A model generated the notes under the pieces. It was not told the origin of the DNA, did no database searches, and saw only the letters and a list, made by a program, of their open reading frames with translations. The translations under genes were made by a program, and so were the position numbers. Shown here piece by piece: positions 3,613 through 26,450 of a DNA stretch of 28,018 nucleotides. The stretch covers positions 1 to 28,018 of the forward strand of contig JALVLX010000153.1 of the NCBI GenBank assembly GCA_027032855.1, in the 5' to 3' direction. Source of the stretch: Flavobacteriales bacterium (GTDB lineage Bacteria > Bacteroidota > Bacteroidia > Flavobacteriales > Flavobacteriaceae). The stretch's first letter is position 1. The number at the start of each line of letters is the position of its first letter.

Positions 3613-3624
3613 TATTGATGTAAA

Positions 3625-6270: not shown

Positions 6271-6335
6271 TGTAGATATTTAGGAATATGTTTTTGAGAT
6301 GAAACCGGTATGATTAAAATAATACTTTTAAACTG

Positions 6336-9041: not shown

Positions 9042-9065
9042 TATCGGTATTTTTAAAAAACATAT

Positions 9066-10367
9066 TTGAAACCGGAAACATCTTTTATGAATCTACTTAA
9101 AAACAAAAAAACGTCAAGCATCCTGTTGTTAACAGGGATTGCCAAATCCAAAAAAAAACCGGATACTTCCGGATTTAAAAGGTTTATATCACACATTGAG
9201 AATAAACATAAGAAATTTACGGATTTGGAGGTATTGAAGCATCTTTTTCTGCCTGCCCATATTGATAATCTGGCAGCTGAAGAAAAAGAGCGAAAAAAAA
9301 CAAACAGTCCTCGTTGCTATACTAAAACAATCAATAAGGATTATATTTTTCATTTTGACAATGAAGCTTATAAAATACCGGTCAAACATTTGGACATTTT
9401 TTTCTTCCCGGATGAGGTAATGATCTATTCCATAAAAACCGAATTACACAATTTGCCGGTGTCATTAATCCCTGTATTTAATCATAAGATTAGAAGATTT
9501 GAATTTGAAAAAGATAGTGTGTTTGAAGAGATATTCCATATTCTCAACCGTTTATCGGAAGATGAACGGGACAAAATGGAAGAATATACTGATTTTTTGC
9601 ACCTTGTTACCAATGGTAATAAGCTAAAATCCTATCTTCTTTTGCTGGAAGATTTTAGTTATCCAAAAGATTATTCAAGGGATAATTTGATGTTTGAGCT
9701 TGCCACTTGTTCTCCTATTGGCAGTAGTACGGGAGCTACTGCCGATAAAAAATTGCAGCCGGCAACATCATATTATGAGTATATATTAGAGCAAGGCAAA
9801 ATTTCCGTATTTGAAGAATGGTGCGCTTTGTCCACTAATGATTCTTTTGTTTATGTACAAAATAATAACAGTGGTACGGGGCTTAATATCTTTCAGTGGG
9901 AACATCTGTATTACAGGTTTATTTACCTCAATGCAGTATATATATACAATTACCTTTTTGAGATTAATAAAGCCTATCGTAAAGAAAAATACGATAAGAA
10001 TTTATTGCACAAATTTTTGGATTTTGATAAAAAATATATCCTTGAAAAAATATCATATAATTTTTTACCAAATCTGGTACATAAGAAAATTAAAGCCGCA
10101 ATGGGAATAGACAATGAATTGGAGCAACTGCATACCTCTATAGACAAAGAGAGTATTAAACGTGATAGAATTTCAACTAATAAGTTGAACGCCGTGCTGC
10201 TTATTATTACATTGTTGTCTATGATATCCGTTTTTAAAGAATGGGGTGATTGGCTTGTAGAAGTGAATTTGGTACAGCTCGATACATTTTCTTATTATCT
10301 TTTCTCTTTGTTACCGGTTGGTATTGCCATATTGCTAATGTTGTTTTTTTGGCGCAGGTCGAAATAG
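9066..10367 (+). CDS. CorA-like two-TM membrane protein (no GMN motif); start may be the ATG at 9087
   Basis: Large soluble alpha/beta N-region, a long helical stalk (LLHKFLDF...ISYNFLPNLVHKKIKAAMGIDNELEQL), then two C-terminal TMs and a basic tail (WRRSK). This is the CorA-superfamily layout. Confidence 0.55.
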   Translation: MKPETSFMNLLKNKKTSSILLLTGIAKSKKKPDTSGFKRFISHIENKHKKFTDLEVLKHLFLPAHIDNLAAEEKERKKTNSPRCYTKTINKDYIFHFDNEAYKIPVKHLDIFFFPDEVMIYSIKTELHNLPVSLIPVFNHKIRRFEFEKDSVFEEIFHILNRLSEDERDKMEEYTDFLHLVTNGNKLKSYLLLLEDFSYPKDYSRDNLMFELATCSPIGSSTGATADKKLQPATSYYEYILEQGKISVFEEWCALSTNDSFVYVQNNNSGTGLNIFQWEHLYYRFIYLNAVYIYNYLFEINKAYRKEKYDKNLLHKFLDFDKKYILEKISYNFLPNLVHKKIKAAMGIDNELEQLHTSIDKESIKRDRISTNKLNAVLLIITLLSMISVFKEWGDWLVEVNLVQLDTFSYYLFSLLPVGIAILLMLFFWRRSK

Positions 10368-10458: not shown

Positions 10459-10478
10459 TAAGTTCAATTAGTAAATGC
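10459..10478. repeat. 20-bp direct repeat, copy 2 (TAAGTTCAATTAGTAAATGC)
   Basis: Identical to 482-501. Confidence 0.95.
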
Positions 10479-10500: not shown

Positions 10501-10508
10501 TATATTTG
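10501..10508 (+). promoter_or_regulatory. Bacteroidetes housekeeping sigma -7 element (TATATTTG) for cluster B
   Basis: TAnnTTTG consensus preceded by a T-tract, 84 bp upstream of the ATG at 10593. Confidence 0.65.
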
Positions 10509-10592: not shown

Positions 10593-12938
10593 ATGAAAAA
10601 AATTCTTTCAATTTTCTTCTTTTTTGTAATAGGTAGTGGCGTGTTTGCACAACCATGTCAAAAGGAAAAGGAAGAAAAACCTATTTTTATAAGTACAAGT
10701 TTGGGGGAAACAGATCCTGAATTAAAGGCTGTTGATATTGACAATTTGTCAAATTTGTGGATTATTACAATGGATAAATCTACGTTAGAGGGAGAGTCCC
10801 AATTGTATTTAGACAATAGTATTCTTTTTATAATTAAGACACTTCAAGATTGCGTTTATCCAAGGATTAATTTTGATAAAGACAGATTTGTGTTTTACAA
10901 TACCGGAGTTGTGAAAGATACCGGTATGGTGAGAAGCTATACCGGTTTAAACGCTCTGAGAAGTATTGAGGCAAATTTTACTGATGCGTATATTCATTTT
11001 GTTTATCAACATGTTTATTCTCCAAAAAAAAGAAGAAGAATAAAGACAACAAATGTTAAGTTTAAAAAACATCGCGATAAAGGACTTAGTGATAAAATAA
11101 CTGAATATTTGGAAGCAAATGAACATAATTCTGAAAGAATTTACCCGTATAAGTATTCATTTGTGTCTTTAAATCATACTTTATCCTTAAGTAAAACCCT
11201 AAAATATTTTAAAAAGGAAAAAAAAGCAAGATTTAATTTGTTAAACTTTAATAAGATTTATGTTTTGAGCATAACTAATGAAGAAAACGCTTTATCTGAC
11301 GAAAATGATTATTGGTTGACGGATTATAAGACGATAAAAGAATATGCGCCCGAAAAATTAAAAGAAATAAATACTGTAATAAGCCGTTTGGTTGTAAGTC
11401 CGTTTAGTAAGACTGAGAAACCTTTTGCGCGTTTTGTGCCTGTTTTTAATAAGGCTAACAGTTATTGGAGAGTTTCACTGCTGAGGTATGAAACATTTCG
11501 GTCAATTCCGGATACAATTGGATTTTTTAATGACATCTTAAAGCTTGAAAAGAAAAACGGAGACATTTTTGTAAAATTGGCAAAAAAGCGCATTTGGGGG
11601 AATGCCATTGAACAGGTTTCAATCAAAACATTTGCACTAAATCGTTCTACTACGCCAAGTACAGATTTTATTTTTAAAGATAGCTTTCCGGTTAATATCT
11701 CAATTAACAAATTTTTTGAAAATAATATGAGGATATCCGGTTATGCACAGGTGATATATAATGATCCTGTACTGGGCAAAAAACGAAAAAAAATCTATTT
11801 TAAACAGACCATTAATTTTTATTCAAATATTTATGATATGATTTTGAAAATTTTATTGTTAGGATCGTTGCTTTTGTTTGTCGTCTATGTTTCTCAAAAA
11901 CAAATGATTGTTGTAACACCTGCGGGTTCTGTAGTGTTCAAGCGAGGTTTCTTTCTATTTTCAAAATTTACAAAACAAAATATTTTAATGCTGTTGTCTG
12001 ACGGACAAAAGATTACAAAGCTTCTAACTTGTGAATCGGTTTTGTCGTTTTTATTTGTGAAAAATAATCCAAATCTTGTTTTTGAAGCCAATGATTCCGA
12101 TTATGAAATGGTCATTATGTCTAAAAAAAGTTTTGAGGTAACAAGTGTGCTAATTAAAACCGAATTATATAAAAAGAAATCAGACAAAAAAAGTACTGCT
12201 GAGACTAAAGAAATGAAGGAGATAATCAACGCATTCAGGGAGGGTTACAATCTTCGTTTTGTCCAAAAAAATACGGAACGTTTCATCTCGATTGATAACA
12301 AATACAATATTGTTAAGAATTATATTGAAGAAATCAATCAGCCGGATGATGAAGCAAAGAACCGGGCAATGATTTCAAAATATTTTATTGAAAATAATAT
12401 ATTTAGAAAAGCTAACTACTTTTTTATGATCAATGAAGTTGGTAACAAAGTTTTTTATAACTTTGTAAGGTTTTGTACAAAAAATAAACCGGATGTAAAA
12501 ATATTAATAACATACCAGAGAGAATTGGGCGTACAAGACAACGAGAAAGCGTATCGTGAAATAAAACAATTGGCAAAGAAGTATCATTTGAATTTGCATA
12601 AAAAAATTATTTATGAGAATGATAGTGCATACAACAAACAACTGAGCCATATAACTACTTCGGTTTATCCTTTGTTTGTAGCTATTATGCCTGATAATGA
12701 AGTATTAAAAGAAAAAGATGTCATGATGATATACGATCCGTTGCTTGAAACGGACCAAGTCACATTTAAGATTCCGGAAATGCCGGATGACGGAAGACAT
12801 TATTATTTATATCAATATTCTGACGTTTATATCTATCGTTTGTCATACAATGAAAGAATACCGTATCAGGTTGATCAGCTATTGCCGTCGCACAGATATA
12901 CTTTAGATTTATCTAATGGAAAAATAAAATTAAAATAA
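10593..12938 (+). CDS. membrane protein: signal peptide, vWA-like extracytoplasmic domain (degenerate MIDAS), TM, cytoplasmic C-domain
   Basis: Signal MKKILSIFFFFVIGSGVFA|Q. WIITMDKST (D61-K-S63) resembles vWA strand 1 and KIYVLSITNEE resembles strand 4 with D replaced by N. TM at about aa 417-434. The vWA call is tentative. Confidence 0.75.
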   Translation: MKKILSIFFFFVIGSGVFAQPCQKEKEEKPIFISTSLGETDPELKAVDIDNLSNLWIITMDKSTLEGESQLYLDNSILFIIKTLQDCVYPRINFDKDRFVFYNTGVVKDTGMVRSYTGLNALRSIEANFTDAYIHFVYQHVYSPKKRRRIKTTNVKFKKHRDKGLSDKITEYLEANEHNSERIYPYKYSFVSLNHTLSLSKTLKYFKKEKKARFNLLNFNKIYVLSITNEENALSDENDYWLTDYKTIKEYAPEKLKEINTVISRLVVSPFSKTEKPFARFVPVFNKANSYWRVSLLRYETFRSIPDTIGFFNDILKLEKKNGDIFVKLAKKRIWGNAIEQVSIKTFALNRSTTPSTDFIFKDSFPVNISINKFFENNMRISGYAQVIYNDPVLGKKRKKIYFKQTINFYSNIYDMILKILLLGSLLLFVVYVSQKQMIVVTPAGSVVFKRGFFLFSKFTKQNILMLLSDGQKITKLLTCESVLSFLFVKNNPNLVFEANDSDYEMVIMSKKSFEVTSVLIKTELYKKKSDKKSTAETKEMKEIINAFREGYNLRFVQKNTERFISIDNKYNIVKNYIEEINQPDDEAKNRAMISKYFIENNIFRKANYFFMINEVGNKVFYNFVRFCTKNKPDVKILITYQRELGVQDNEKAYREIKQLAKKYHLNLHKKIIYENDSAYNKQLSHITTSVYPLFVAIMPDNEVLKEKDVMMIYDPLLETDQVTFKIPEMPDDGRHYYLYQYSDVYIYRLSYNERIPYQVDQLLPSHRYTLDLSNGKIKLK

Positions 12939-12947
12939 TATACGAGT

Positions 12948-15341
12948 ATGGAGAAAGTATTTTTACCCTTAAAATTGGAAACAAGTCTTAAAATCATTAG
13001 TCTTTCCGAAGAAAATATAGAATGGTATGATCCGGCTATTATACGAGGTGAAAATTTATTTACCTTTGAAAAAAAAGCCAGAGGTTTATTTTCGGAAGAA
13101 AATAAATTAAAAGAATATGAACTTAGTTTTGAGATTGAGGAAGAGAATGTTATAACAGAGGGCAATTACTATGAAATTACCATTAGAATTAGAAAATCAA
13201 CCAATGGTAATTTTGTTATTGAAGAAGATGACGACAAGGACGATTCTGATCCCAACGCAAAAAAGAGATTTGTTCTACAAAAAAATGAGGGTAAAATTTA
13301 CTTAAAACTGAAGACTGAACCCACACACAATTCCGTTGTAAAAGTTATTTTCAAATATATGGAAGTTGATGATGAAGAAGAGGAGGAGGCTACTGATGGA
13401 AGAGTTTATACGGGTAAGTTGATGTTGGTTAAAGTGCCTTTTTCAGATGTGGTTAATATTAATATTGATTTAGGTTCGGAAGCCACTCAGATGAATTATC
13501 GTGACAGTAAAAACTCTCTGAATAGTATCAACATAATTAATAAATTTAACAAGCAATTAAAAATTGAAAAAACAAATCCGGACGATTACTTTTTCCAAAT
13601 GGATTTGTTTAATTCCTCTTTGTTTATAACCGGAAATTTATTAGTAAAAAAAGTAGGCGGTCATTTATATCCGGCTAAAAAGTTTGACGATAATGATGTT
13701 TTTTATCGAGTACTGAGTTTAAAATCAGATTTGAATAAGAAGGATGAAGATGTGTCATATAAAGACTGGAAAACTTCTAAGAACAATATTACTCGTTTGC
13801 CCAATCCTAAAATTTTGGCACAAGTGAACGTAGATCATATCATTAGTTCTGATATTGTTTTTTTAGACAGTTACGGTGATGAAACAGATTTGTCTTTAAA
13901 CTACCCGAGCTTTATCAAACATTTTTATAAATCATTGATTGAAATAGCCATCAATAAACATAGAAGAGAAAATGGTTTTGGAGAGTTTATTACAATTAAA
14001 AATTTCAGAGTTGTTTTGTTAATGCCCAATGTTTTTAATCAGAATTATATTACCGGTGTGGTAAAATATCTGAACAAAGCCATTAATGAAAAATTTGTTA
14101 AGGAACGTTTTGGTGACAATCCACAACCAAACAGCAAGCATCCAATGGTAGAAATTTTTGTTGTGTCAGAAAGTGATGCCGCATTTATGGGGGCTTTGCG
14201 TACCGGAAATACGGGGGTTGAATCTCACAAAATAAAGAAAGGGGATAAGATTTTAATCATTGATTCGGGTAAGGGAACAACGGATTTTTCAATTGTTGAG
14301 TATCTTGATAACAACCGGTGGAAAAACATAAAACGAGGCGGGATAATTGGTGCCGGGCAGTATATTACCAATGCTTATTTTAAAAGATTGGCAAAATTGG
14401 TAAAAGAGAGTGATAATAGAAATGATTATAATAATAAAGCTTATGATAATCTGATAAGCAGCTATACTCATCCGGAAAAGTGGCAAGCAGGATATGTTAT
14501 CAGTGAAATATTGGAAACTATTAAGCGAAAATCTACGGATTATGATACTTGCCAACTTGACGAAAAGTTTGTTGAACACCTGAAAGATAATGTTGTCGAT
14601 AATAATGCAACCTACGATATAAAGATTCCGAGTAGATGTATCAAGGATGATTTGGTAAAATTGGTTGTTGAAATTGTTGATAAAATTATTGGAAATAAAG
14701 CTGAAATTTCAGATATAGATAAAATATATCTGACCGGAAGAAATTTTATGTTTGAACCTTTTAAGAATTTGCTGAAAACAAGACTTAACCAAGTAGTTTT
14801 TTCAAAAACTACCGGCGGCTTCTTTTCTAAGAAAAAACGTGTTCCGTCAGAAATTGTTGTGGTAAAAGATGAAAACCTGAAAACTCTGGCAGTAAATATT
14901 CAATCGCCTACAGATTTTGAAACCAATGCTAATAGCGGACTGTTGGGACAAGAGTTTGATTTGTACAAGCCTATAAAACACAATAACAAGGAGTATTACT
15001 ACATTGGTATGCAGTACAATGATAAAAGTATTGTCAACAAAAATGATATCATGGATGCACTTGATATGCAGGAGACCATAAATATTTCGAAATTTACGGG
15101 TGATGCAATTTTAGCACCGGGTGTTTTGCCAAGTGCAAATGGATATTATGGTAAGTTGCTGGAAGAAATAGATAAAATAGTTGTAGAAGATTGTAGGTTT
15201 ATACTTTATGAAAAAAAAGAAGAAGATACTAAAGAACCCGAAACCCAAAAGCCGGTTGTTGAAAACCAAGGTGTTGTAAACAAAAATGATGATGCGAACA
15301 GCAATAACAAATCTGATAATCCTGATGAATATAAAATATAG
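12948..15341 (+). CDS. divergent actin/Hsp70-superfamily ATPase with extra N-terminal domain
   Basis: Phosphate-1 INIDLGSEATQ (D174), connect-1 VVSESDAAF (E408), phosphate-2 ILIIDSGKGTTDFSIV (D439), GGIIGAGQYIT, and adenosine motif IYLTGR (G597), in the correct order. No signal peptide. Confidence 0.85.
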   Translation: MEKVFLPLKLETSLKIISLSEENIEWYDPAIIRGENLFTFEKKARGLFSEENKLKEYELSFEIEEENVITEGNYYEITIRIRKSTNGNFVIEEDDDKDDSDPNAKKRFVLQKNEGKIYLKLKTEPTHNSVVKVIFKYMEVDDEEEEEATDGRVYTGKLMLVKVPFSDVVNINIDLGSEATQMNYRDSKNSLNSINIINKFNKQLKIEKTNPDDYFFQMDLFNSSLFITGNLLVKKVGGHLYPAKKFDDNDVFYRVLSLKSDLNKKDEDVSYKDWKTSKNNITRLPNPKILAQVNVDHIISSDIVFLDSYGDETDLSLNYPSFIKHFYKSLIEIAINKHRRENGFGEFITIKNFRVVLLMPNVFNQNYITGVVKYLNKAINEKFVKERFGDNPQPNSKHPMVEIFVVSESDAAFMGALRTGNTGVESHKIKKGDKILIIDSGKGTTDFSIVEYLDNNRWKNIKRGGIIGAGQYITNAYFKRLAKLVKESDNRNDYNNKAYDNLISSYTHPEKWQAGYVISEILETIKRKSTDYDTCQLDEKFVEHLKDNVVDNNATYDIKIPSRCIKDDLVKLVVEIVDKIIGNKAEISDIDKIYLTGRNFMFEPFKNLLKTRLNQVVFSKTTGGFFSKKKRVPSEIVVVKDENLKTLAVNIQSPTDFETNANSGLLGQEFDLYKPIKHNNKEYYYIGMQYNDKSIVNKNDIMDALDMQETINISKFTGDAILAPGVLPSANGYYGKLLEEIDKIVVEDCRFILYEKKEEDTKEPETQKPVVENQGVVNKNDDANSNNKSDNPDEYKI

Positions 15342-15343
15342 TT

Positions 15344-17959
15344 ATGAAGCCAATTGTTAAGAAAAACGGAATAAAAATAATCTTAATCTTACTGTTATTA
15401 TTAATTGTATTTTTTTCAATTAAGAGTATAAAATCAACGGATAGATTAAGCCAAGTTTTTTATAATAGTGAACCCGAAGTTGAAATACCTGCGGAAGCTG
15501 TTGCGATGAACTTTTTCTTACAACAGCACGATACTTCGATTAATTCTAAAATAATTTTACAGGTTTATGAGCGTCAAACCCCTGACGCGTTGGTTATAAA
15601 GTTGTTTGGAAAAGGAAAACTTATTGACAGTTTGCAACTGGTTTATACAAATGATACTTTAAAGGTAGAAACCTTAAAAAACGCAAATCCTTTTTTAAAA
15701 AAAACTAAATTGGATTTGTTGTTTGGAAGTGCAAATAAATGGGATTTAGCAAAATACAAGTCAAAGACAATTATTGAAAAACTTAATTGGAATGATATAA
15801 AACCGGATGAAAAATATGATAGTAAAAGAAAAATAAATTCGTTACCGGCAAAAGCTTTTTTTGCTCAAATATTAAAAAACAAGTATCGTGCGCAAAATCC
15901 TAAAAAGGATTATTTGTTGTTAATATACAAACCCAAAACGAACGGTACTTTTGCAAAAGATGATTTCAAAACACTGTTTGTTAATAAACAAGAGGTAATT
16001 GACCAATATTCAAATTACTTAAAACAACAAAGAGACAACCTGTCAAAGAACAATCATTCCGGTGTATTTGATTTAGTACGTAAAGGTGAAAATTATAAGA
16101 TTGTTGAGAAAGGCAAAAAACAACTTAGTTCAAAAAAGACGTTGGGGAAAAAATTGCCTCAATCATTATTTAATTTCTTTTCATTGCTGGAAAATAGAAC
16201 TTTAGACAGGACTAAAACCAGATATAAGGCCTTTAATTATATTTCATATCTCAATTTATCAGTACCGGGAGGAAAGTGGAAAGAGTATTTTGAAAAACAT
16301 AAGAATGATAAATTTGAAGATTTTATAGCTGGTGCACTTCTTTTGCAAATGGATACTTGGAAAAAGGATAAATTGCATTTGGAATATGGAAAAGATAAAA
16401 ACGGACAAACTTTTATCAGTATTTCATCCGGCAAAATTTTTAATCCGGCATGGATTGTTCTGGTGTTGTCATTGCTGGGAATTGTACTGATTTTATTAGA
16501 TGGAATAACCAAAAACAAATTAATTGTTCAAAAAGAAAAAATACAAAATAATCAATGGACTAATTATTTGTCCGGTTTAATTCAAACGCAAGAGAATGAG
16601 GGGATTAAACAAAAACTTTTGGCTTATAAAGACAATCATGATTATTTACAACAATGTTTGGATATAAAAAGGAAAGGCAATGAAGATGTAGTAAAATTGA
16701 TTGAAAAAGGTAATTTGGAAGAGGCGCTTAAGCAAAAGAATGACAGTATCAAGAAGTTGAATAGCAAGTTAGAAAAAATTACGAAGGCAAAAAGCATTGA
16801 GGAACTTAATCAACTGGGAGTAAATATTGAGAACCCCGTTGAACAATTAGATTCTAATGATAATTTTGAAGGTTTTTATCAAAAACTGGTTAATCTTTAT
16901 AAGAATTATGCAACGGAATTGAATAATTTAAAGCTAGATGCCGGAAAATATCGTCAGCTTGAAAAATTGACTGATATTGTTAGTTTAAAGGATAATATTT
17001 CAAACAAAACACTAGTTGCCAAACTCGATGAACTGTTGAAGTTTGCAACGGCTTACAAGGACATACTCAGCATGTCAAAGTGGAATGATTTGAAACAAAA
17101 TAAGGAATTATTCAATAAACTTAATGCGCTTCGTCCCGATAAAACATTGCTTGAAGAAAAAGACTTTGATAAATTTTATGATTTGTTGACGGTGTCTTAT
17201 TCTCAATATAGCGATAAACTGAAACAGTATAAAGAGGTTTCACAATTCTTATCTCAAAATAATCTTGATAGAAACGAATTGAAAGACATGTTGATAAAAC
17301 TGAAAGCAATCAACAAAAAGCCTTATGAAGCATTCAATATAATTTATAACGAAATTTATTTGAAAATAACAAATGCGGAAAGACTTGGTGATATTAAAGA
17401 ATTGCTCAATGAATTCAGTAAAATTGACTATGAAGAAAATTTGCAATATTTGCTAAAATTAGAGAATACCGGTTCATTAAAAGTAGATAAAATATTAAAT
17501 AAAATTATTGAAAATGGTATAAATTCCGACAATGTAGATAGTTTCTTTAACTCGTATAAACTTCAAAAACAATTTATGTCAAAATTACCCGGTTTGATTG
17601 ATGAAGTTTGGGATTCGTTAGAAGAGGTTGAACTGAACAATCCGGTTGTATTTGAACCGGAGCAAATCATCAATCTTATGAAGTTTTATAATATAATGAG
17701 AGATTACGAAAGAACTTACAGAAAAGGCAATGATATGCACTATAAAAAATACAAAGCAAATGTATTTAAACTGATAGGCGATGAGGAAACTGCCAAAAAT
17801 TTGGTTGAAAAATTTGATGTTGTAAACGGTATTTATTCTCATCAGGTTAAAATCATGTATTTTTATATTGGTGAGCATCTCAATGCATATAAAGGAAAGA
17901 TTGATTTTTACATTGATGGTACCGACTTTTCAGAGTATTTTGAAAATTTAAAAAAGTAA
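15344..17959 (+). CDS. two-TM membrane protein with extracytoplasmic domain and long cytoplasmic helical/coiled-coil region
   Basis: N-terminal anchor at about aa 10-25 and a second TM at about aa 370-387, followed by about 480 aa of K/E/L/N-rich helical sequence. Confidence 0.8.
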   Translation: MKPIVKKNGIKIILILLLLLIVFFSIKSIKSTDRLSQVFYNSEPEVEIPAEAVAMNFFLQQHDTSINSKIILQVYERQTPDALVIKLFGKGKLIDSLQLVYTNDTLKVETLKNANPFLKKTKLDLLFGSANKWDLAKYKSKTIIEKLNWNDIKPDEKYDSKRKINSLPAKAFFAQILKNKYRAQNPKKDYLLLIYKPKTNGTFAKDDFKTLFVNKQEVIDQYSNYLKQQRDNLSKNNHSGVFDLVRKGENYKIVEKGKKQLSSKKTLGKKLPQSLFNFFSLLENRTLDRTKTRYKAFNYISYLNLSVPGGKWKEYFEKHKNDKFEDFIAGALLLQMDTWKKDKLHLEYGKDKNGQTFISISSGKIFNPAWIVLVLSLLGIVLILLDGITKNKLIVQKEKIQNNQWTNYLSGLIQTQENEGIKQKLLAYKDNHDYLQQCLDIKRKGNEDVVKLIEKGNLEEALKQKNDSIKKLNSKLEKITKAKSIEELNQLGVNIENPVEQLDSNDNFEGFYQKLVNLYKNYATELNNLKLDAGKYRQLEKLTDIVSLKDNISNKTLVAKLDELLKFATAYKDILSMSKWNDLKQNKELFNKLNALRPDKTLLEEKDFDKFYDLLTVSYSQYSDKLKQYKEVSQFLSQNNLDRNELKDMLIKLKAINKKPYEAFNIIYNEIYLKITNAERLGDIKELLNEFSKIDYEENLQYLLKLENTGSLKVDKILNKIIENGINSDNVDSFFNSYKLQKQFMSKLPGLIDEVWDSLEEVELNNPVVFEPEQIINLMKFYNIMRDYERTYRKGNDMHYKKYKANVFKLIGDEETAKNLVEKFDVVNGIYSHQVKIMYFYIGEHLNAYKGKIDFYIDGTDFSEYFENLKK

Positions 17960-17967
17960 ATTAGCGT

Positions 17968-20900
17968 ATGAGTTTATCTGAATATTTGTTATCAGGACTT
18001 TTTTTTATAATTGTTTTTTTTGTTCTGTTTAATTTTTTTAAAGAAAAAATTGCTAAAAGAGGTATAGAAATTATATTGTTTTTTTCTTTGTTTTTTGTCG
18101 GTTTATCCTATTATGCCTTTAGGAGTTTGACCCATTCCTCCGACAAAAATATGTACACAAATACCGATTTGTTACATTTGGAATTAACAGGATATCAATT
18201 CGATTCGATTGTCAATTTATTCAATAGCAGAACTGATGATAACTTAAGCCGGGTGGTCCCTCAAAATAATAAGTATGCCGGATTTATTAATTCCAACAGA
18301 TACGAAACAGCTTTGTTTGACCGAGAAAAAGGCTATTTGTCTGTTATTAAAGATACTGATAACAAATATTCATTATCATATCGCTATTTGTCAAAGCCAT
18401 TGTATGTTCAAAATGAAAAAAACGAATATGAACTACAAAAAGCCGGTTGTTTAATACTTGACAGTTTGCCTGTTTTTATCAAATTTGATGAAAAAACTTA
18501 TAAGATTAACAAAAAGAAATTTAATAAAGAAAAAAGAAAGATAAAGCAAGACACAACAATCAGTGAATATTTAACAATCAAATTAAATAAGGAAGAAAAA
18601 AACAAAATCAGTTTTAATTTTGAATTTATTGGACGAAAAAAATATTCTAATATTAAATCTGAACCTTTGTCATACAAGTACGGCTTGCCTTTGTTAGATA
18701 TTCTAGCCACTTGTGATATCAAAGTTCCCCTTACAGATCAACAAAAGGAAATATTAAATGATACTTATATTCTTAGAGGAGTTTACGGCTATAAAAAGAG
18801 CCGGATATATTTATTTCCCGGGCATAATTTATCTCTAGCTCCAAAAGCCGGTTATGGATATTCAGAAAAAAATATACAAACAGGTGACAACTTGCATACG
18901 GTTCAACTTCCTGTCAACAAAAAGTTTTTTTTGGGGATTGGACATGAGCAAACACCCAAGTGGACGGTAAAATCCGGTAATAATAATAAGTCTGTTCTGG
19001 AATATAAACTTAAACCTAAATTTCCTCTTTATACAAAGGATACGATTTCAAAAATGTACCTGTCAACGGACCTAAATGAAATTATCAGAAATTCATCTTA
19101 TTATAACGGGGTTATTTCTTTTGGAAATCTAAAAGATAATAATGTTAACCACATAGATGCCTCAATACACTATGCCAACGATGATATAAATACTGCTTAT
19201 AAGTTAAAATTAGTAGATCATAATCGTAATAAACAACTTGATAAAGATATTGTTAACAAACAAATCGCATTGGCAACGAAAGCTAATGTAGGACCGGATT
19301 ATTTAATTAAGATTAGCGCCCCCATTAAACAACACCCGATACATAAGTACCCTTGGGCTGTTTTCGGCTTACTTTTTTTATACCTTTGGCTTCTGGCTAT
19401 CTTTAAAAGAAGAGAGGAAATAAAGAATAGCTTCAACAAAACCATAAAGATTAGCTATTTTATCGAATCTTTGGTTATTTGGGTTCTTTTGGCTTTTATA
19501 ACATTACGAATGGTTGTTTATTGGCGTTTGATTGCATTTCCGCCACTCAAAGACATTACATATAATGAATATATTAAAATAGTTGATCAAAATTCGAATC
19601 GTTTATTTTCAATATATCCGAAATACAAATTGCTGTTATCCGGCATCATGCTATTACTATTATTGTTGATTGCAAGATATACGATACTTCCGGTTCTTAA
19701 AACAAAAATTGAAAAAATAATAAGCAAATTTCAAAAACTCAGTGAAAATTCGGCTGATGCATGGAAGAAAAACGTTCTGATTCCATTTTTAGTTTTGTTT
19801 GTTATCACTGTTATACTGGAAATTTTGTTTAAAGATTTAATTCTAATAAAGATATTTTTCCCGTTTGTAGCATTTTTCTATATGCAGCGCCGTTTATTTG
19901 TTTTGGGGTATGTCAGCTTAAAATATTTATTGTTACCGGTTTTATATTTAGGGGTTTTCATCATTTTTGATAAGGGTTTTTTCCCGATTTTAATGCTTTT
20001 TTTGGTACTATATTACCTGACTATATACTTCATCTTTAACCCAAAGAAGACAAACAAACAAAAAAATAGATTGCTTTATTTATTGGGAGGCATTTTATTG
20101 GTTGTTATTTTATTATTTCCTTTCAAGCCTCTACGTTCGGCAGTCGCAACTACCTTAAAATCCTTTCACAGCAACGGTTTAAATAGAATCGCTTATCGTT
20201 TTGATATACTTGATTATAGCGTTGGCGAAATTCTTTACGGAACTGCCTACAAATCTGATAATGCACAGAAAGCAAGTTGGGCTGCTTCAAGTTTTTGGTT
20301 TACCAAGAACTATCTGTATAAACAGTATTATAATAAGCATCATGATGTCGTCGTAGAGGGTAAAAGCAAGAAAATAAAAGACTTACCCGCAAATTTTGAT
20401 ACTTTTTATCCAACCAGAGCCGGCGTTAGTATCATCAATCAAACCCGCGATTTGGTTTTGGTTAGATATATAATTTATGAACATGGTTTATGGGTGCCGT
20501 TTTTGTTAATAGCCTATTTGATTCTTCTGTTTTTTGTATATTTTTATTATACCTATGATGCCAGTTTTATCTACACGGATACCGGCCGTAATCAATATTT
20601 TACTAAGATAAGTTATAAATCGTTCAATCTGATTTTTGCCGGCATTGTGTTGTTTCTGATAAGTGTCAATTTAATTATCTACTTGGTTAATTTGAATCAG
20701 TATCCGTTTTTGGGACAAGATTTTTTATTCTTAACAATGACGGGTTTTTCCACGATTGTTTCCGGGATATTTATTTTCGCGGCACTTATCTTGCTGATTG
20801 ATAAGGATAATTTTAATATTGATACCAACAGAAATGCTACGTTCATACAGGTAATGCAAAATTGGATTAACAATAAGGGAAAAATTACCAAAGAATCTTT

Positions 20901-23562
20901 CCCGGTTTTGTCTTTTATATCAATTGTAATTTTGTTGGCTTTAGTGTTGTTGCTTTACCCTAACCGGTTAAACAATCAATTAACAGCATTGGCTAACAAG
21001 GATAAAGGTAATCATGAAAATTTAGATTATAAGGTTAGAAAGCCTATAGAAGCTTTACTTAATTTTACTTCAGAATTTAATAAACCGTTTAAGTCTTATC
21101 AGCGTCATTTAATCAATAAAATTAAAAACAGAAACAGTTTTTATATACCAAAAAAATATATTGAAAAGGTAGTAGCCGGTGTGGCAAATGATTCTGTTTC
21201 AAAAGATTCTAAAATGGATTTTATAATACATGGAAAGAAAATTTCTTTTGATGTAAAAGATTTTGTAGATGAAATGACCCCACATTACAAGGCAATTAAA
21301 CAAAAATATAAAGATTCAATTTATGTCATGTCCGCTTTTAAAGATTTTGCCAATCAGGAAAATCTACAAACTTTTAAACATGTGTTGTATTTGCGCAAAA
21401 ACAGAAATGGCATTTACAGTTTGGGTGTAAATCGCCGTTATTATACGATTGCCGCCATTTTTGATAAATCGGATAAAGATAAATGGAGTGGAGATTTAAT
21501 GGCCAATACTTTTGTTAAAGATATCAGTGTGCAGATTGATAAAAAATATAGTAGAAAAGATGTTAAATTCACCAAAGGAAATTTGCCGCCATGGGCAAAA
21601 ACAATCTCAAACGTCAGCTTTAATGATTATTTTAACATATATAAAATTGACGGTGATGTATTGGGATATGAAAAACCGCGATTAATTGCCAAGATTGCAC
21701 GAAATAGTGAAAAAAATATTGATATTTTTTTGAAAACAGCAGATGAGGGAGAAAGTATTAGAAAAGGAAAGGATTTGTTCGATTATTATTTAGAAACAAA
21801 TGACATAATTAAATTACATGCCGGCAACAATACGTATCAAATGAGAGTTGTTTATAAAAATGGTAAATATTTGGCACATAAATATCATTACAATGGTGTT
21901 GAAAGATATTTTTATCCCTTAGGAAAAGACTTTGTTTGGGCGTATGCGGCAGTCAATCATTTTCAAAACTATGGCACGCCTGAATTAAAGGACAGCATCA
22001 TAGAAACAAGTTTTGATTATATTTTACACCAACAACTATTGAAAGACTTAAGAACCAGAAGTAATGCCTACGTAACCGTTGCCGATGCACGAGGCAGAAT
22101 TTGGGCAATGGTTGATAAAAACAGAGATAAAAGAGCTTTTCGTATAGACCCGAATAATCCGGTCGATTTTACTAAGAAAACAGCCCAAACTTTTTTCGGT
22201 AATGCACCCTTTAGAGAAGAGGATGTGTTTGGAACGCGAAATCTTAGAATCAATAAAAATGGTTTTGGTTCAACCATAAAACCCATTATTTACGGTGCTG
22301 TAACTTCTCGTCTGCAAATGCCCGGTATTGCGTGGAACAGTATTGTGGTAAATAATATTATTCCTCAAAGATATGATACTAATACTAAAAAAACAGGTCA
22401 TCAATATTTTGGTGGAAAAAAATTCTATCCTATTTGGGTAGAATCAATAAGTAGAGAGTTTCGTACAAATGAGGATATCAATAATAGAGAATATCTGGTA
22501 AAGTCCAGAAACATGTACAACGCCATAGTTGTTGCGCTTGGGGCATATCCGAGCGAAGCATTCGCTAATCGTGGAAATTATAACCTTCGTAATGTGTTGT
22601 TGAGTGAAACAGACTTGAATAATAAATATGATAACGATTCAACATTTATGTTCCCACGCTTAATAATAAATGGTTCTTATCATTACTTTGATTTTAAAAA
22701 CAAAAAGAATTACTACGGAATACTAGATGAAGGTTTGGATAAAAACTATAAATTTATTTCTAAAAATAAAAAAACAGAGAATCTGAGAACTTACGAGATA
22801 AAGAATTATTACCAAAGCTTTAAAAGCGTTAAGAAGGATACGGCAAATTCAAAAAATATAGGAGTAGGCATCGGATACCGTATGTTTTTCCCTGAACGCA
22901 TGCGTTTTGTTAGATTTGTGGACAATAATTTTTATCAAAATGTTATCAATCCGGCTAAAGCCGGAACTCCTTTTGAGTTAACCCAATTCGGAATGGTTGA
23001 AAGTATTTTGAAGCTATTTACTTTTAACAGGGATTTTCAATTAGGTTTTGTTAAAGATTCATTGAAAAAAAGCCAAATATTAAATAGAGTAAACTGGGAG
23101 GTTAATCCCGGAAATAGAAAACATGTATTTAAAACATTTGTTCAAAACAATATCTTTAAATTTATGAATCTTTCTGTTTTAGAAGGGACTTCTGCAGGTT
23201 TAAAAAAACAACTTAACACGGTAAGAGGCTTTAGTTCAAAAACAGAAAACGAACAAATATATTTTGAGTATAATAATCAAAGATTTTACGTATATGCCAA
23301 AACAGGAACATCAAACAGCAATAGAAGCGGTAAAAATGATAAATCGCAATTTTTCATCATTAGTAATACTGATTTAACTAACAGTCAGGCTTATCCGGAA
23401 GGTAAAAACAAAGAAAAAAATGCGAAGAGTAAACCTAAGATTGTAGCAATTCATATCTTTTTACCTAATATTTCAGGGAGAGAAAGTACTGAAATTAAAA
23501 GTAAAATCATAGCATCGATAATAAAATCCCAATCAATGGAAAATTATTTTGAACAAAATTAA
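17968..23562 (+). CDS. SEDS (FtsW/RodA-like) glycosyltransferase fused to class B PBP-type transpeptidase, with extra N-terminal periplasmic domain
   Basis: About 14 TMs. SEDS-like motifs FDKG (D668), TRDLVLVRYIIYEHG (D828) and YPFLGQDFLFLTMTG. Then a TM at about aa 980-996, RYFYPLG, VADARGRIWAMV, GSTIKP (S1435-x-x-K), SRN (S1513) and AKTGTS (K1778). Confidence 0.85.
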   Translation: MSLSEYLLSGLFFIIVFFVLFNFFKEKIAKRGIEIILFFSLFFVGLSYYAFRSLTHSSDKNMYTNTDLLHLELTGYQFDSIVNLFNSRTDDNLSRVVPQNNKYAGFINSNRYETALFDREKGYLSVIKDTDNKYSLSYRYLSKPLYVQNEKNEYELQKAGCLILDSLPVFIKFDEKTYKINKKKFNKEKRKIKQDTTISEYLTIKLNKEEKNKISFNFEFIGRKKYSNIKSEPLSYKYGLPLLDILATCDIKVPLTDQQKEILNDTYILRGVYGYKKSRIYLFPGHNLSLAPKAGYGYSEKNIQTGDNLHTVQLPVNKKFFLGIGHEQTPKWTVKSGNNNKSVLEYKLKPKFPLYTKDTISKMYLSTDLNEIIRNSSYYNGVISFGNLKDNNVNHIDASIHYANDDINTAYKLKLVDHNRNKQLDKDIVNKQIALATKANVGPDYLIKISAPIKQHPIHKYPWAVFGLLFLYLWLLAIFKRREEIKNSFNKTIKISYFIESLVIWVLLAFITLRMVVYWRLIAFPPLKDITYNEYIKIVDQNSNRLFSIYPKYKLLLSGIMLLLLLLIARYTILPVLKTKIEKIISKFQKLSENSADAWKKNVLIPFLVLFVITVILEILFKDLILIKIFFPFVAFFYMQRRLFVLGYVSLKYLLLPVLYLGVFIIFDKGFFPILMLFLVLYYLTIYFIFNPKKTNKQKNRLLYLLGGILLVVILLFPFKPLRSAVATTLKSFHSNGLNRIAYRFDILDYSVGEILYGTAYKSDNAQKASWAASSFWFTKNYLYKQYYNKHHDVVVEGKSKKIKDLPANFDTFYPTRAGVSIINQTRDLVLVRYIIYEHGLWVPFLLIAYLILLFFVYFYYTYDASFIYTDTGRNQYFTKISYKSFNLIFAGIVLFLISVNLIIYLVNLNQYPFLGQDFLFLTMTGFSTIVSGIFIFAALILLIDKDNFNIDTNRNATFIQVMQNWINNKGKITKESFPVLSFISIVILLALVLLLYPNRLNNQLTALANKDKGNHENLDYKVRKPIEALLNFTSEFNKPFKSYQRHLINKIKNRNSFYIPKKYIEKVVAGVANDSVSKDSKMDFIIHGKKISFDVKDFVDEMTPHYKAIKQKYKDSIYVMSAFKDFANQENLQTFKHVLYLRKNRNGIYSLGVNRRYYTIAAIFDKSDKDKWSGDLMANTFVKDISVQIDKKYSRKDVKFTKGNLPPWAKTISNVSFNDYFNIYKIDGDVLGYEKPRLIAKIARNSEKNIDIFLKTADEGESIRKGKDLFDYYLETNDIIKLHAGNNTYQMRVVYKNGKYLAHKYHYNGVERYFYPLGKDFVWAYAAVNHFQNYGTPELKDSIIETSFDYILHQQLLKDLRTRSNAYVTVADARGRIWAMVDKNRDKRAFRIDPNNPVDFTKKTAQTFFGNAPFREEDVFGTRNLRINKNGFGSTIKPIIYGAVTSRLQMPGIAWNSIVVNNIIPQRYDTNTKKTGHQYFGGKKFYPIWVESISREFRTNEDINNREYLVKSRNMYNAIVVALGAYPSEAFANRGNYNLRNVLLSETDLNNKYDNDSTFMFPRLIINGSYHYFDFKNKKNYYGILDEGLDKNYKFISKNKKTENLRTYEIKNYYQSFKSVKKDTANSKNIGVGIGYRMFFPERMRFVRFVDNNFYQNVINPAKAGTPFELTQFGMVESILKLFTFNRDFQLGFVKDSLKKSQILNRVNWEVNPGNRKHVFKTFVQNNIFKFMNLSVLEGTSAGLKKQLNTVRGFSSKTENEQIYFEYNNQRFYVYAKTGTSNSNRSGKNDKSQFFIISNTDLTNSQAYPEGKNKEKNAKSKPKIVAIHIFLPNISGRESTEIKSKIIASIIKSQSMENYFEQN

Positions 23563-23575
23563 AATTAATCAATCA

Positions 23576-24064
23576 ATGAAAGACTTATTAAAAAATAACA
23601 TATTTTTTCTACTGATATTGGTATTCGCGATTGCATTTTTTTGGAAATTTAGCAATAAAACTGAAAAAACAAGCAACACACTTTTGGAAAAACAATTTGA
23701 TTTGGAAAAAAGAGCCAATATCAAAATTAAAGCCAATTATTTGGATTCTATTTTTACAACCGGTCGTTGGCACATGAACAATAAAATAAAATTTAACGGA
23801 GTTGAAAAATCAGATGACAAAATAATAGTGAAATATACGCTTGCAGAACCTAATTCTGATAATTTTTACGATTTGATATTTAATGATGATAGTAATTTGG
23901 TAAAAGAAAAAAATGATTCGTTATGGGATAACTCTATGAAAGCAAATGAAGGAGTTTTTACGTTTAAAGAGGTATCCAAAAAAAATGATACACTTTACGT
24001 TACGGTGCCGGTATCATTACTAACAAATTTTTTATACAAAACAGATAATTTCCAAAAACATTGA
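23576..24064 (+). CDS. small bitopic membrane protein, hypothetical
   Basis: Single N-terminal TM (IFFLLILVFAIAFFW) then a beta-rich domain. The ATG at 23576 is preferred over the overlapping TTG at 23549. Confidence 0.75.
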   Translation: MKDLLKNNIFFLLILVFAIAFFWKFSNKTEKTSNTLLEKQFDLEKRANIKIKANYLDSIFTTGRWHMNNKIKFNGVEKSDDKIIVKYTLAEPNSDNFYDLIFNDDSNLVKEKNDSLWDNSMKANEGVFTFKEVSKKNDTLYVTVPVSLLTNFLYKTDNFQKH

Positions 24065-24125: not shown

Positions 24126-24977
24126 ATGCGTTTTTTATTTAAAAGTAATTTTATCATTTTCCTGTTTTTTGCGACAACAGCTTTTACTTTGCCTCAAGAT
24201 ACAAGAGAGCAATATAAAATCTGCAGAATTCACCATCTGTCTTACAAACAAACAATTCCGGAAAGCAGATTCAAAAATCTGAAAATGATTGGTACGGTCA
24301 ACAAGTTTGGCGTTCAGGGGAAAAATAAACAAGAACGCTTGTACGGTGCCATACTCAGAGCTTTGCGGTTCCAAAATATCACTAGAAAGGTTGAAAAAAA
24401 ATACGGTTTATCAAAAAATCTCCTGTTGGCAATGATTATGCAAGAGAGTGGCGGCGTAGATATTTTGCCAAACGGTAGAAACGATGGTGGTGCCGGATTG
24501 TGTCACATGCAACCCATGATAGCTAAAGATTTTGGACTGAAAGTCTATCAAAATTGCAATAAAATGGTGTCAAAAGTTCATGGTAGAGCCTTGCGTAGAT
24601 TGATAGTTAAGTATAAATCGGACCGTAAAAAACTAATCAAATTTGACGACCGATTTCATCCTATTAAAAATATTGATGCAGTAGCACGAATTCTACAGTT
24701 TTATAAGAATGCCGGCTTTTCAAGAAAAATATATAATACCCAAGAAAAAAGAGCCATAAGAGGTTATACGGGAAAGTATAATTTTAAAAAATATTATAGC
24801 AACCTAAAGTATTATCAAAGAATGTTGAATAATAAAAAAGTTATTAATGAAGTGAGAAAAATGTTTAACAAAAAAAATAAGAACTTCTTAATTGATGGCA
24901 AAAAAGGCAATTTTGACAGCTACATCAAAGCACATCAAAAACAAAACATCAATTACGGTTTAAACAGGTACAAGTAA
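24126..24977 (+). CDS. SLT-family lytic transglycosylase (lysozyme-like fold), secreted
   Basis: Signal peptide; KYGLSKNLLLAMIMQESGG (catalytic E107), GAGLCHMQPMIA (motif II), FHPIKNIDAVARIL. Confidence 0.85.
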   Translation: MRFLFKSNFIIFLFFATTAFTLPQDTREQYKICRIHHLSYKQTIPESRFKNLKMIGTVNKFGVQGKNKQERLYGAILRALRFQNITRKVEKKYGLSKNLLLAMIMQESGGVDILPNGRNDGGAGLCHMQPMIAKDFGLKVYQNCNKMVSKVHGRALRRLIVKYKSDRKKLIKFDDRFHPIKNIDAVARILQFYKNAGFSRKIYNTQEKRAIRGYTGKYNFKKYYSNLKYYQRMLNNKKVINEVRKMFNKKNKNFLIDGKKGNFDSYIKAHQKQNINYGLNRYK

Positions 24978-24998
24978 TTGTGTTTTAAAATTATATAT

Positions 24999-26450
24999 AT
25001 GAAAATTAGAATTGGATTTGCAATTTTTTTATCATTATTCTTTTTGTTGTCTTGTGAAACTGGCCAAAAAAATGACCAAAAAGAAACACCTCCGGAACCC
25101 GTCCAAACAAAATTTACCCTAAAGGATTTTTTGACGTCCAATAAATTTTTAGACAAAAAAGTCGATAGTATTTTTAAAACACTTTCTAGTAAACAAAAGG
25201 TATCTCAACTAATAATAGCATCTGTAGGAGACAAAAAAACAGATAATTTCAAACAAGTTGAAAAACTGGTAAAAAATAAGATAATAGGAGGTGTTGCTAT
25301 GTTTAGAGATGCTAAGGATACCATAAAAAGGAGAATAAAAATCTTAAATAACGAAAACACCAACATACCGTTATTGTTTAGCATTGATGGCGAACCCGGC
25401 TTGATAAACAGACGTTTAAAATCAAACATTGTTTCTATCAAAAATACCAGTGATTTAAAAACTACAACACAGGTTAAAAATATAGCCGAAAAGATTACGA
25501 ATACTTTAGTAGATATCGGAATCTATCAAAATTATGCACCGGTATATGATTTAAGCTACAACAAAGCTATTATCAATAAAAGATCTTTTGGAAACAAACC
25601 GGAAACTATCAAAAAGCTGGGCAAAGCCTTTATCAACGAAACACAAAAGAAAATTGTGGCAACGGTAAAGCACTTTCCCGGACACGGAAATGTTAAAGGG
25701 GACAGTCACAAGCAGTTGGTATATATTGACGGGAAGTTAAAAGAACGTGAATTGTTTCAAAGTGCAATAGATGACGGGGTATATGCTGTTATGGTTGGAC
25801 ACATTGCTATCAAAAATAACAAAAAGTATAATACAAATGGGCTACCGGCTACTTTATCAAAAAATATTGTTACGGACTTACTCAAGAACGAAATGAAATT
25901 TAAAGGATTGGTCGTGACAGATGCCTTTACAATGAAAGCCGTAAATGATATTCCCAATGCAGGGATTAAAGCCATTGAAGCCGGTTGCGACCAAATACTG
26001 ATGCCGGAAAATCCTGAGACTTTTTTCAACAGCGTTCTGAAAAAATACAAAACGGACAAACAATTTGCAAAAACGGTTGATAACGCCACAAAAAAGAATA
26101 TTCGCCTAAAAATTTGTTTAGGATTTTTTGATCACCCCAAAAAACAAAAGAAATCACAATCCAAAGCCAAAACATATACATTTAAAGGACACGTTGATAA
26201 ATATCCGGTAAAAATGACGTTGCATATCGTTGGTAATAGTGTAACAGGTTCATATACTTATACCAATAATAATATTACACTGCGTCTGGGTGGTTCGATA
26301 AAGGCAAACAGGTTGGTACTTTTTGAAAGAAATAAAGCAAATCAAAAAACAGGTAAATTCATAGGTAAAATGGAGAATAATACGTTTTCGGGCGTATGGC
26401 AAAATTTGAAAACTAAAAAGCAGTTAAACTTTTCTCTCAAGTCAAGCTGA
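24999..26450 (+). CDS. nagZ: GH3 beta-N-acetylglucosaminidase (NagZ-type) lipoprotein with an extra C-terminal beta domain
   Basis: Lipobox LLSC (C19 from the ATG at 24999); SIDGEPG, NYAPVYDL, RSFG, KHFPGHGNVKGDSH (NagZ signature), VMVGHI, GLVVTDAFTM, AGCDQILM. Confidence 0.9.
   Translation: MKIRIGFAIFLSLFFLLSCETGQKNDQKETPPEPVQTKFTLKDFLTSNKFLDKKVDSIFKTLSSKQKVSQLIIASVGDKKTDNFKQVEKLVKNKIIGGVAMFRDAKDTIKRRIKILNNENTNIPLLFSIDGEPGLINRRLKSNIVSIKNTSDLKTTTQVKNIAEKITNTLVDIGIYQNYAPVYDLSYNKAIINKRSFGNKPETIKKLGKAFINETQKKIVATVKHFPGHGNVKGDSHKQLVYIDGKLKERELFQSAIDDGVYAVMVGHIAIKNNKKYNTNGLPATLSKNIVTDLLKNEMKFKGLVVTDAFTMKAVNDIPNAGIKAIEAGCDQILMPENPETFFNSVLKKYKTDKQFAKTVDNATKKNIRLKICLGFFDHPKKQKKSQSKAKTYTFKGHVDKYPVKMTLHIVGNSVTGSYTYTNNNITLRLGGSIKANRLVLFERNKANQKTGKFIGKMENNTFSGVWQNLKTKKQLNFSLKSS

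Follow-up and report, generated by a model that had tools for sequence, protein, structure and literature searches.

A candidate Hsp70-linked peptidoglycan synthase complex encoded by an unannotated gene cassette of Bacteroidota

This study was concerned with five adjacent genes in a 28,018-nucleotide stretch of DNA from a member of the Flavobacteriaceae (contig JALVLX010000153.1 of assembly GCA_027032855.1; this whole stretch is called the window below). The question raised by these genes is whether they encode a peptidoglycan-building machine in addition to the elongasome and the divisome. An earlier note on this DNA had proposed such a parallel machine, made up of an anchor resembling the von Willebrand factor A (vWA) domain, an ATPase of the actin/Hsp70 fold, a coiled-coil membrane protein, a SEDS polymerase fused to a penicillin-binding protein (PBP) and a bitopic protein. 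Pairs of a SEDS protein and a class B PBP (bPBP) form the core of wall polymerisation in bacteria and are major targets of antibiotics, and the way in which they are switched on from the cytoplasm is still under active study. The cassette is real, has no annotation and is scattered through Bacteroidota. Its interpretation as an accessory, horizontally scattered peptidoglycan-synthesis complex is given a probability of about one half, on the basis of sequence comparisons and predicted structures.

Co-occurrence and distribution of the cassette

The five open reading frames (ORFs) are co-directional on the + strand and together span 10593-24064 in the ORF list of the window (Table 1). The intergenic gaps from gene 1 to gene 5 are 9, 2, 8 and 13 bp, the last of these with the ATG start of gene 5; if gene 5 uses its TTG start, genes 4 and 5 overlap by 14 bp. 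The putative promoter box, TATATTTG, sits 85 bp upstream of gene 1 inside a 225-bp intergenic region. A generic sigma-70 and terminator scan gave no signal over background within the cluster. Thus the ORF list and the motif match confirmed the layout described in the earlier note, which consisted of five genes with these gaps behind one upstream promoter box. None of the five proteins scored above threshold in searches of Pfam, NCBIfam, PADLOC or PDB sequences, and the protein assignments presented here rest on family-level analysis of relatives.

A word-based search found four relatives of the giant protein encoded by gene 4. Two of the four, about 21-22% identical, share the five-gene layout and have unrelated flanking genes. 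A pattern scan using one genome per species yielded 74 loci, which belong nearly all to Bacteroidota (Emticicia, Taibaiella, Edaphocola, Chitinophagaceae, Flavobacteriaceae, Bacteroidales and Prevotella); a single one comes from a metagenome-assembled genome (MAG) of Fibrobacter. Another of the loci (L015, CALRLS020000016.1) is on a contig binned as ‘Cyanobium sp.’ and has cassette genes of the same sizes and order as the Emticicia loci. This occurrence is probably a binning error and not cyanobacterial.

The order ATPase, bitopic protein, giant protein and small bitopic protein (genes 2-3-4-5) is kept in 67 of the 68 loci with enough upstream DNA, and because it recurs in these related loci the arrangement is more than chance. 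Loci merely about 20% identical, with unrelated flanks and from several orders of Bacteroidota, are included in this count. The co-occurrence of the cassette genes elsewhere, on which the earlier note had made its proposal depend, was therefore observed for genes 2-5. In iterative searches of all ORFs of the loci, 67 loci proved to have the ATPase gene upstream of the giant gene, at a distance of 1-2.5 kb. Loci that have no ATPase gene are cut by contig ends, with the single exception of a Sediminibacterium MAG (L038:9656-13948), in which the giant gene lacks the N-terminal 415 residues (the periplasmic domain) and no ATPase gene is found upstream.

Genes 1 and 2 are both homologous to their copies in locus L007 (E = 3e-26 and 2e-26, respectively). 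Gene 1, however, was present in 10 loci only (the window, L007 and loci of Bacteroidales), and therefore the core of the cassette, as judged by comparison of the loci, is genes 2-5 and gene 1 is accessory. The earlier note had counted gene 1 as part of the machine, which did not hold for the core. Many loci carry a sixth gene, which is unrelated to the SLT-like gene located downstream in the window. In addition, conserved genes of about 307 and 175 codons precede the ATPase gene in Emticicia loci (L015, L020, L021 and L071), and a gene of about 203 codons does so in Taibaiella and Edaphocola loci (L027, L037, L043 and L073). These small genes may be lineage-specific extra members.

Of 301 sampled genomes of the phylum, 5 carry the cassette according to a search with the ATPase profile, and a match to this profile is absent from all of the 22 other genomes from the window's own family. 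Among 1.84 billion representative proteins, the ATPase family comprises about 380 clusters (50% identity) at E<=1e-30, and its named members are all labelled ‘hypothetical protein’. The cultured carriers include Emticicia aquatilis, Taibaiella koreensis, Edaphocola aurantiacus and Spongiimicrobium salis, and the proposed function is therefore directly testable. Other carriers are gut and rumen MAGs of Bacteroidales and Prevotella.

The host assembly is a MAG of 1.46 Mb that is 69% complete. One of its contigs (C209) carries mreB, pbp2 and rodA together, a second (C22) carries ftsA, ftsW and ftsI, a third (C55) carries a class A PBP and a fourth (C222) carries dnaK. The PF01098 model detects the host FtsW at 1e-63 and the host RodA at 1e-51. 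Since these mreB-pbp2-rodA, ftsA/ftsW/ftsI and dnaK genes are present in the host besides the cassette, the cassette is accessory, an extra. The presence of both separate canonical sets was a point left to be checked by the earlier note, and it rules out the cassette as the organism's only rod/div locus.

The giant protein of gene 4

The C-terminal half of the gene 4 protein is, by homology, a class B PBP with its active-site motifs intact. The motifs S1435-x-x-K1438, S1513-x-N1515 and K1778-T-G1780 are found in this order and are conserved in 54 sequences with about 20% identity. Every motif residue is fully invariant except T1779, which is kept in at least 90% of the 54 sequences. When the C-terminus was aligned by hhalign with 30 FtsI and PBP2 sequences of Bacteroidota, the match had a probability of 97.3% (E = 2.7e-11), and the bPBP landmarks aligned successively: the TID junction, DPN, GS(S/T)xK, SSN, GTA and KTGT. 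In its extended form the alignment spans 521 columns and runs from the pedestal region through to the C-terminus, with low confidence in the pedestal part. In the ESM Atlas, the neighbours of this region carry PF00905. The window's own protein has no PF00905 match at the gathering score, which is 22.1 bits and is exceeded by the relatives in L037 (28.1 bits) and L055 (25.8 bits). A search of PDB sequences with the gene 4 profile returned a weak match to the KTG region of PBP1b (E = 0.04). The transpeptidase domain also contains large insertions.

The membrane core that precedes this half was assessed by topology, profile comparison and language-model neighbours. To assign the topology, helices were counted backwards from the PBP domain in the periplasm, and the loop KEKIAKRG was taken as positive-inside. 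Ten core transmembrane helices (TMs) are predicted at residues ~491-968, with a 105-residue periplasmic loop (728-834) between the seventh and the eighth. According to hydropathy and the helices of the AlphaFold2 (AF2) model, this arrangement corresponds to that of a SEDS protein with the anchor TM of a bPBP behind it. The model of residues 1-1100 has a mean predicted local distance difference test score (pLDDT) of 77.4 and a predicted template modelling score (pTM) of 0.79.

In hhalign comparisons the core matched FtsW at P = 2e-4, RodA at P = 4.5e-3 and Wzy_C at P = 3.4e-4, while the controls, reversed profiles and MurJ, gave P>=0.026. A relation of the core to MurJ itself, used as a negative control, was rejected (P = 0.25). 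In the positive control, SEDS against Wzy_C, the probability was 96.6%. Four SEDS motifs are matched in the same order by invariant residues of the core in an alignment of moderate confidence: R744 is aligned to the Arg of QxxR, D828 to the catalytic Asp of TDF, E838 to EE.G and G916-QDFPF to the G.P.PF.SYGG motif preceding the last TM. A three-way alignment with Wzy_C is consistent with this, and gene 4 has an Asp, as SEDS proteins do, where Wzy_C has His-Asn. In the ESM Atlas, the 100 named clusters nearest to residues 485-1010 belong without exception to PF01098, and the best match (0.94, with 178 shared features) exceeds the 170-feature mark of the tool. When 681 control ORFs, 57 of which are SEDS, were ranked with a hidden Markov model (HMM) of residues 730-970, the top two places went to true SEDS proteins. 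An HMM of the full core returned hydrophobic noise only; the block of residues 730-970 alone was informative.

Several results weigh against a SEDS-type core. PF01098 matched neither the gene 4 protein of the window nor five diverse relatives. Foldseek with the model of residues 1-1100 found no SEDS, WaaL or other PDB structure at E<0.15. In addition, the hhalign probability for SEDS was 33-47%, and that for Wzy_C was about equal. On balance, homology of the core to the SEDS superfamily is considered probable from its sequence profile and predicted topology, and given such homology a SEDS-like polymerase is favoured over an enzyme of the Wzy/WaaL kind. Thus, from the SEDS-PBP fusion of the earlier note, the class B PBP was upheld by motifs and by hhalign, and the SEDS half is probable, without confirmation by Pfam or Foldseek.

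The N-terminal module of gene 4 ends in a beta-rich domain at residues 56-455. Its predicted structure has pLDDT values mostly between 80 and 95, and a Foldseek search of the PDB gave no significant match for the module.

The ATPase and the bitopic proteins

The gene 2 protein is, by predicted fold and sequence motifs, a soluble ASKHA ATPase of the Hsp70 nucleotide-binding domain (NBD) type in which all of the catalytic motifs are kept. Its AF2 model has a pLDDT of 65.6 and a pTM of 0.74. The top 50 Foldseek matches in the PDB were all Hsp70 NBDs (best E = 1.6e-10, TM-score up to 0.59). The residues D174, G176, K288, E408, D439, G441, G443, T444, D446, G597 and R598 are invariant in 51 sequences with about 20% identity. 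They form D174-x-G176, K288, E408, D439-x-G-K-G-T-x-D446 and G597-R598, which correspond to the phosphate, catalytic Lys/Glu and adenosine motifs. The gene 2 profile also matched Hsp70 sequences of the PDB weakly (E ~0.006-0.02) and actin-like proteins at E>=0.47 only. Assignment to actin, MreB or FtsA was rejected, as none of these is among the top 50 Foldseek matches. The actin/Hsp70-fold ATPase of the earlier note is thus retained as an ASKHA protein resembling the Hsp70 NBD, and its actin side is dropped.

Gene 2 has no PF00012 match and no substrate-binding domain (SBD) or lid: the Foldseek targets are NBD-only, the protein is predicted to be disordered after about residue 650, and the beta domain at its N-terminus does not correspond to an Hsp70 SBD. 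In locus L009 (3-2121), the closest relative, the ATPase gene is broken by an in-frame stop within a Lys/Glu-rich insert, and similarity to the ATPase continues past the stop, at 44% over residues 348-747. This stop is either an assembly error or the mark of an early pseudogene.

Most loci encode a two-TM protein with the gene 3 layout between the ATPase and the giant protein. Three sequence clusters of gene 3 share a C-terminal domain. The window's gene 3 protein (P0003) links only to its orthologue in L009, which has a weak coiled-coil Pfam match. In BLASTP, and in hhalign with the whole protein or its C-terminus, P0003 could not be linked by sequence to gene 3 of the other loci, L009 excepted, and this counts against the proposed complex. 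The predicted topology places the C-terminal halves of both gene 1 and gene 3 in the cytoplasm, beside the ATPase, in agreement with the earlier note.

Downstream of the giant gene, 70 loci have a small bitopic gene, which in 60 of the 70 belongs to one sequence family. The cluster of the window's gene 5 protein (P0005) joins this family by hhalign at 85% (P = 5.7e-6) and 60% (P = 8.6e-5). In Bacteroidales, gene 5 encodes about 330 residues (L050, L036, L054, L056, L058, L061 and L064), and the one copy scanned (L050:15625-16653) ends in a transglutaminase-like core (PF01841, E = 1.8e-7). Such a fusion is consistent with periplasmic peptide chemistry.

The vWA label of gene 1 is a lead only, taken from sequence, and is unproven. 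Relatives of gene 1 carry DxSGSM and TDD at the columns of the vWA metal-ion-dependent adhesion site (MIDAS), and the window's copy has DKSTL and TNE. The hhalign comparison with vWA proteins of the BatA/B type reached 57% (P = 1e-4) over 26 columns around the first strand only. Gene 1 had no Pfam or PDB match, its profile likewise found nothing in the PDB, and the ESM Atlas was uninformative (best score 0.58). The vWA-like anchor of the earlier note is thus only tentative for the window, where the MIDAS residues are lost and the 26-column motif match is what speaks for it.

Table 1. Features of the five-gene cassette in the window; residue (aa) ranges refer to the respective protein.
Feature	Position	Strand	Length	Description	Basis
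Putative -7 promoter box TATATTTG	10501-10508	+		Matches Bacteroidetes TAnnTTTG	Motif match only
Gene 1 (P0001)	10593-12938	+	781 aa	Signal peptide; exported domain of ~390 aa bearing a degenerate vWA/MIDAS-like motif; TM at aa 411-436; cytoplasmic domain of ~345 aa	ORF; hydropathy
Gene 2 (P0002)	12948-15341	+	797 aa	N-terminal beta domain at aa 1-165; two-lobed core; disordered polar tail from ~aa 650	ORF; AF2 model
Gene 3 (P0003)	15344-17959	+	871 aa	N-in TM at aa 9-30; periplasmic domain of ~330 aa; TM at aa 363-388; helical, coiled-coil-like cytoplasmic tail of ~480 aa	ORF; hydropathy
Gene 4 (P0004)	17968-23562	+	1864 aa		ORF
Gene 4, N-terminal module	17968-19332	+	aa 1-455	TM hairpin, then beta-rich domain of ~400 aa, predicted periplasmic	
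Gene 4, polytopic core	19348-20877	+	aa 461-970	One extra TM, then ten TMs	Hydropathy; AF2
Gene 4, PBP half	20890-23562	+		Anchor TM at aa 975-1011; class-B PBP-like pedestal and transpeptidase at aa ~1020-1864	
Gene 5 (P0005), ATG start	23576-24064	+	162 aa	N-terminal TM anchor; periplasmic domain of ~130 aa; core member	ORF; hydropathy
Gene 5 (P0005), TTG start	23549-24064	+	171 aa		ORF

Proposed function, alternatives and surroundings

As a peptidoglycan-synthesis complex, the cassette could work in the following manner. Gene 4 would be a single-chain synthase in which a very divergent SEDS-type core is joined to a class B PBP. The core would polymerise muropeptide precursors linked to undecaprenyl diphosphate (Und-PP) on the periplasmic face, and the polymer would be cross-linked by the PBP transpeptidase, which is part of the same chain. 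The invariant Arg, Asp and Glu of the core are in predicted periplasmic loops. The periplasmic parts of the bitopic proteins (genes 3 and 5, with gene 1 in the window's subtype) may contact the enzyme or the wall, and their cytoplasmic parts may reach the Hsp70-NBD-like ATPase. By binding these cytoplasmic segments in the course of its nucleotide cycle, the ATPase might switch or assemble the synthase, in a role analogous to that of FtsA, MreB or PilM working via FtsN, RodZ or PilN. We infer the catalytic activity and all of the protein-protein contacts of the cassette. The presumed trigger would be stress, repair, a change of shape or beta-lactam tolerance, and a positioning or regulating role of the ATPase is purely conjectural. 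Of the parallel machine put forward in the earlier note, co-occurrence, the ASKHA ATPase, the class B PBP and the topology were retained, and likeness to actin and gene 1 as a core member were given up. More specifically, the cassette could be a third, self-contained peptidoglycan machine, horizontally mobile, in which an Hsp70-type switch, and not an actin-type filament, gates a single-chain SEDS-bPBP enzyme through bitopic adaptors; this version is put forward tentatively.

The logic of such a complex resembles that of known systems. The elongasome (RodA-PBP2 with MreB/RodZ/MreCD) and the divisome (FtsW-FtsI with FtsA/FtsN/FtsQLB) likewise would share the combination of a polymerase, a bPBP, an ASKHA ATPase and bitopic linkers. 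However, the ATPase of the cassette belongs to the Hsp70-NBD branch and not to the actin branch, and the cassette is accessory and patchy in hosts that retain the canonical sets. No relation of its bitopic proteins to RodZ, MreC/D, FtsN or FtsQLB was detectable with Pfam and NCBIfam. With Hsp70/DnaK (PF00012), gene 2 shares the NBD fold and all of the motifs for ATP binding and hydrolysis, but it differs in having no substrate-binding domain or lid, in its unique N-terminal beta domain and disordered tail, and in being encoded with membrane proteins rather than beside DnaJ and GrpE. In PilM-PilN/PilO and GspL-GspM, a cytoplasmic protein of the ASKHA fold clamps the cytoplasmic tail of bitopic partners. 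These systems offer a possible working analogy, in which an ASKHA protein would be linked, by way of bitopic proteins, to a machine in the periplasm; they serve another machine, and the likeness is one of analogy alone, not of sequence or fold.

Gene 4 itself is best compared with natural single-chain SEDS-bPBP fusions, of which 117 InterPro proteins of 900-1350 residues have been catalogued, adjoining mreB, rlmH or genes for a Ser/Thr kinase and a phosphatase (PMC12516126). Like gene 4, these fusions proceed from a polytopic core to an anchor TM and a bPBP, and they also coexist with FtsW-FtsI and RodA-PBP2. They differ in being recognised by Pfam, whereas the gene 4 family is about 1800 residues long and invisible to PF01098. 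The gene 4 family also has an extra TM hairpin, a 400-residue periplasmic domain, and an Hsp70-like ATPase and bitopic proteins as partners, unlike the catalogued fusions. Literature searches found this catalogue of recognisable fusions and nothing that describes the present cassette. One sampled Bacteroidota genome contains a 1222-residue frame that matches both PF01098 and PF00905 (G013:C28:26370-29063); this is a recognisable fusion of a distinct family.

The same observations could be read in other ways. The enzyme could be the same and the ATPase a dedicated chaperone or assembly factor, helping to fold or insert the 1864-residue protein and its partners, rather than a switch or a positioning device. 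The Hsp70-NBD-like rather than actin-like fold would suit such a role, the giant protein with its 14 TMs would be a plausible difficult client, and the association of the two genes is strict. A substrate-binding domain is lacking, however, as described above, the cassette encodes no J-domain or nucleotide-exchange partner, and locus L038 has the giant gene without the ATPase; a chaperone is therefore regarded as unlikely, although it deserves attention. Where the core is concerned, a polymerase or ligase of the Wzy/WaaL type for another Und-PP-linked glycan, with the PBP anchoring or cross-linking the product to the wall, has to be kept in mind because Wzy_C scores about equal to SEDS. The two scores, moreover, come from the same block, SEDS and Wzy_C are homologous to each other (the positive control above), and the core has invariant arginines in periplasmic loops, as do Wzy and WaaL. 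Against such an enzyme stand the SEDS-like Asp at the aligned catalytic position, the SEDS-specific G-x-P-x-P-F-like motif, the language-model neighbours, all PF01098, and the presence on the same chain of a bPBP that has an anchor TM of its own, which mirrors the known SEDS-bPBP pairing (PMC12516126). A Wzy/WaaL-type enzyme is considered quite unlikely.

Two further readings would do without a dedicated wall synthase. Gene 4 could be a sensor whose PBP-like domain detects beta-lactams or muropeptides, as in BlaR1 and MecR1, with the core and the ATPase relaying the signal and no polymer being made. Extreme divergence, the large extra periplasmic domain, the large insertions in the transpeptidase domain and the lack of a Foldseek match for the core would all fit a sensor. 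This is nevertheless judged improbable, given that the putative catalytic residues of both modules are invariant in the 54 sequences at about 20% identity and that no DNA-binding, kinase or protease output domain is encoded in the cassette. Least probable, with very little weight, is a mobile conflict or defence system whose action upon infection would be to remodel or damage the envelope. The patchy occurrence of the cassette (5 of 301 genomes, and none of the 22 from its own family), its varying and sometimes mobile-looking flanks (ArdC-N, CoiA and NYN) and the nSTAND1/leucine-rich repeat (LRR) cluster directly upstream in the window would agree with such a system. However, no PADLOC match rose above noise, the STAND-LRR neighbours are not conserved at other loci, and there are no nuclease, toxin or other effector domains.

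If the cassette is indeed a peptidoglycan-synthesis complex, its carriers would possess an extra synthase that is hidden from standard annotation and coupled to an ATPase outside the MreB/FtsA branch. This would widen the sequence space of SEDS proteins and PBPs, would be relevant to surveys of beta-lactam targets, and would provide a new model for the control of wall synthases.

The surroundings of the cassette in the window were also recorded. Downstream, at 24126-26450, are a gene for an SLT-like lytic transglycosylase (weak Pfam match) and a glycoside hydrolase family 3 (GH3; NagZ-like) gene. These were rejected as cassette members: both genes are common only to L009, which is 57% identical, and are unrelated to the sixth gene of the other loci. 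Because only L009 shares both genes, their adjacency is probably local synteny outside the cassette. Upstream, a co-directional cluster at 692-10367 encodes an nSTAND1 NTPase and two paralogues of about 900 residues with LRR, tetratricopeptide (TPR) and WG repeats, and this cluster is not conserved beside the cassette at other loci. A perfect 20-bp direct repeat, TAAGTTCAATTAGTAAATGC, is found at 482-501 and 10459-10478 and brackets the nSTAND1/LRR/TPR cluster. Its second copy is in the spacer just upstream of the putative promoter, and no such repeat would be expected by chance.

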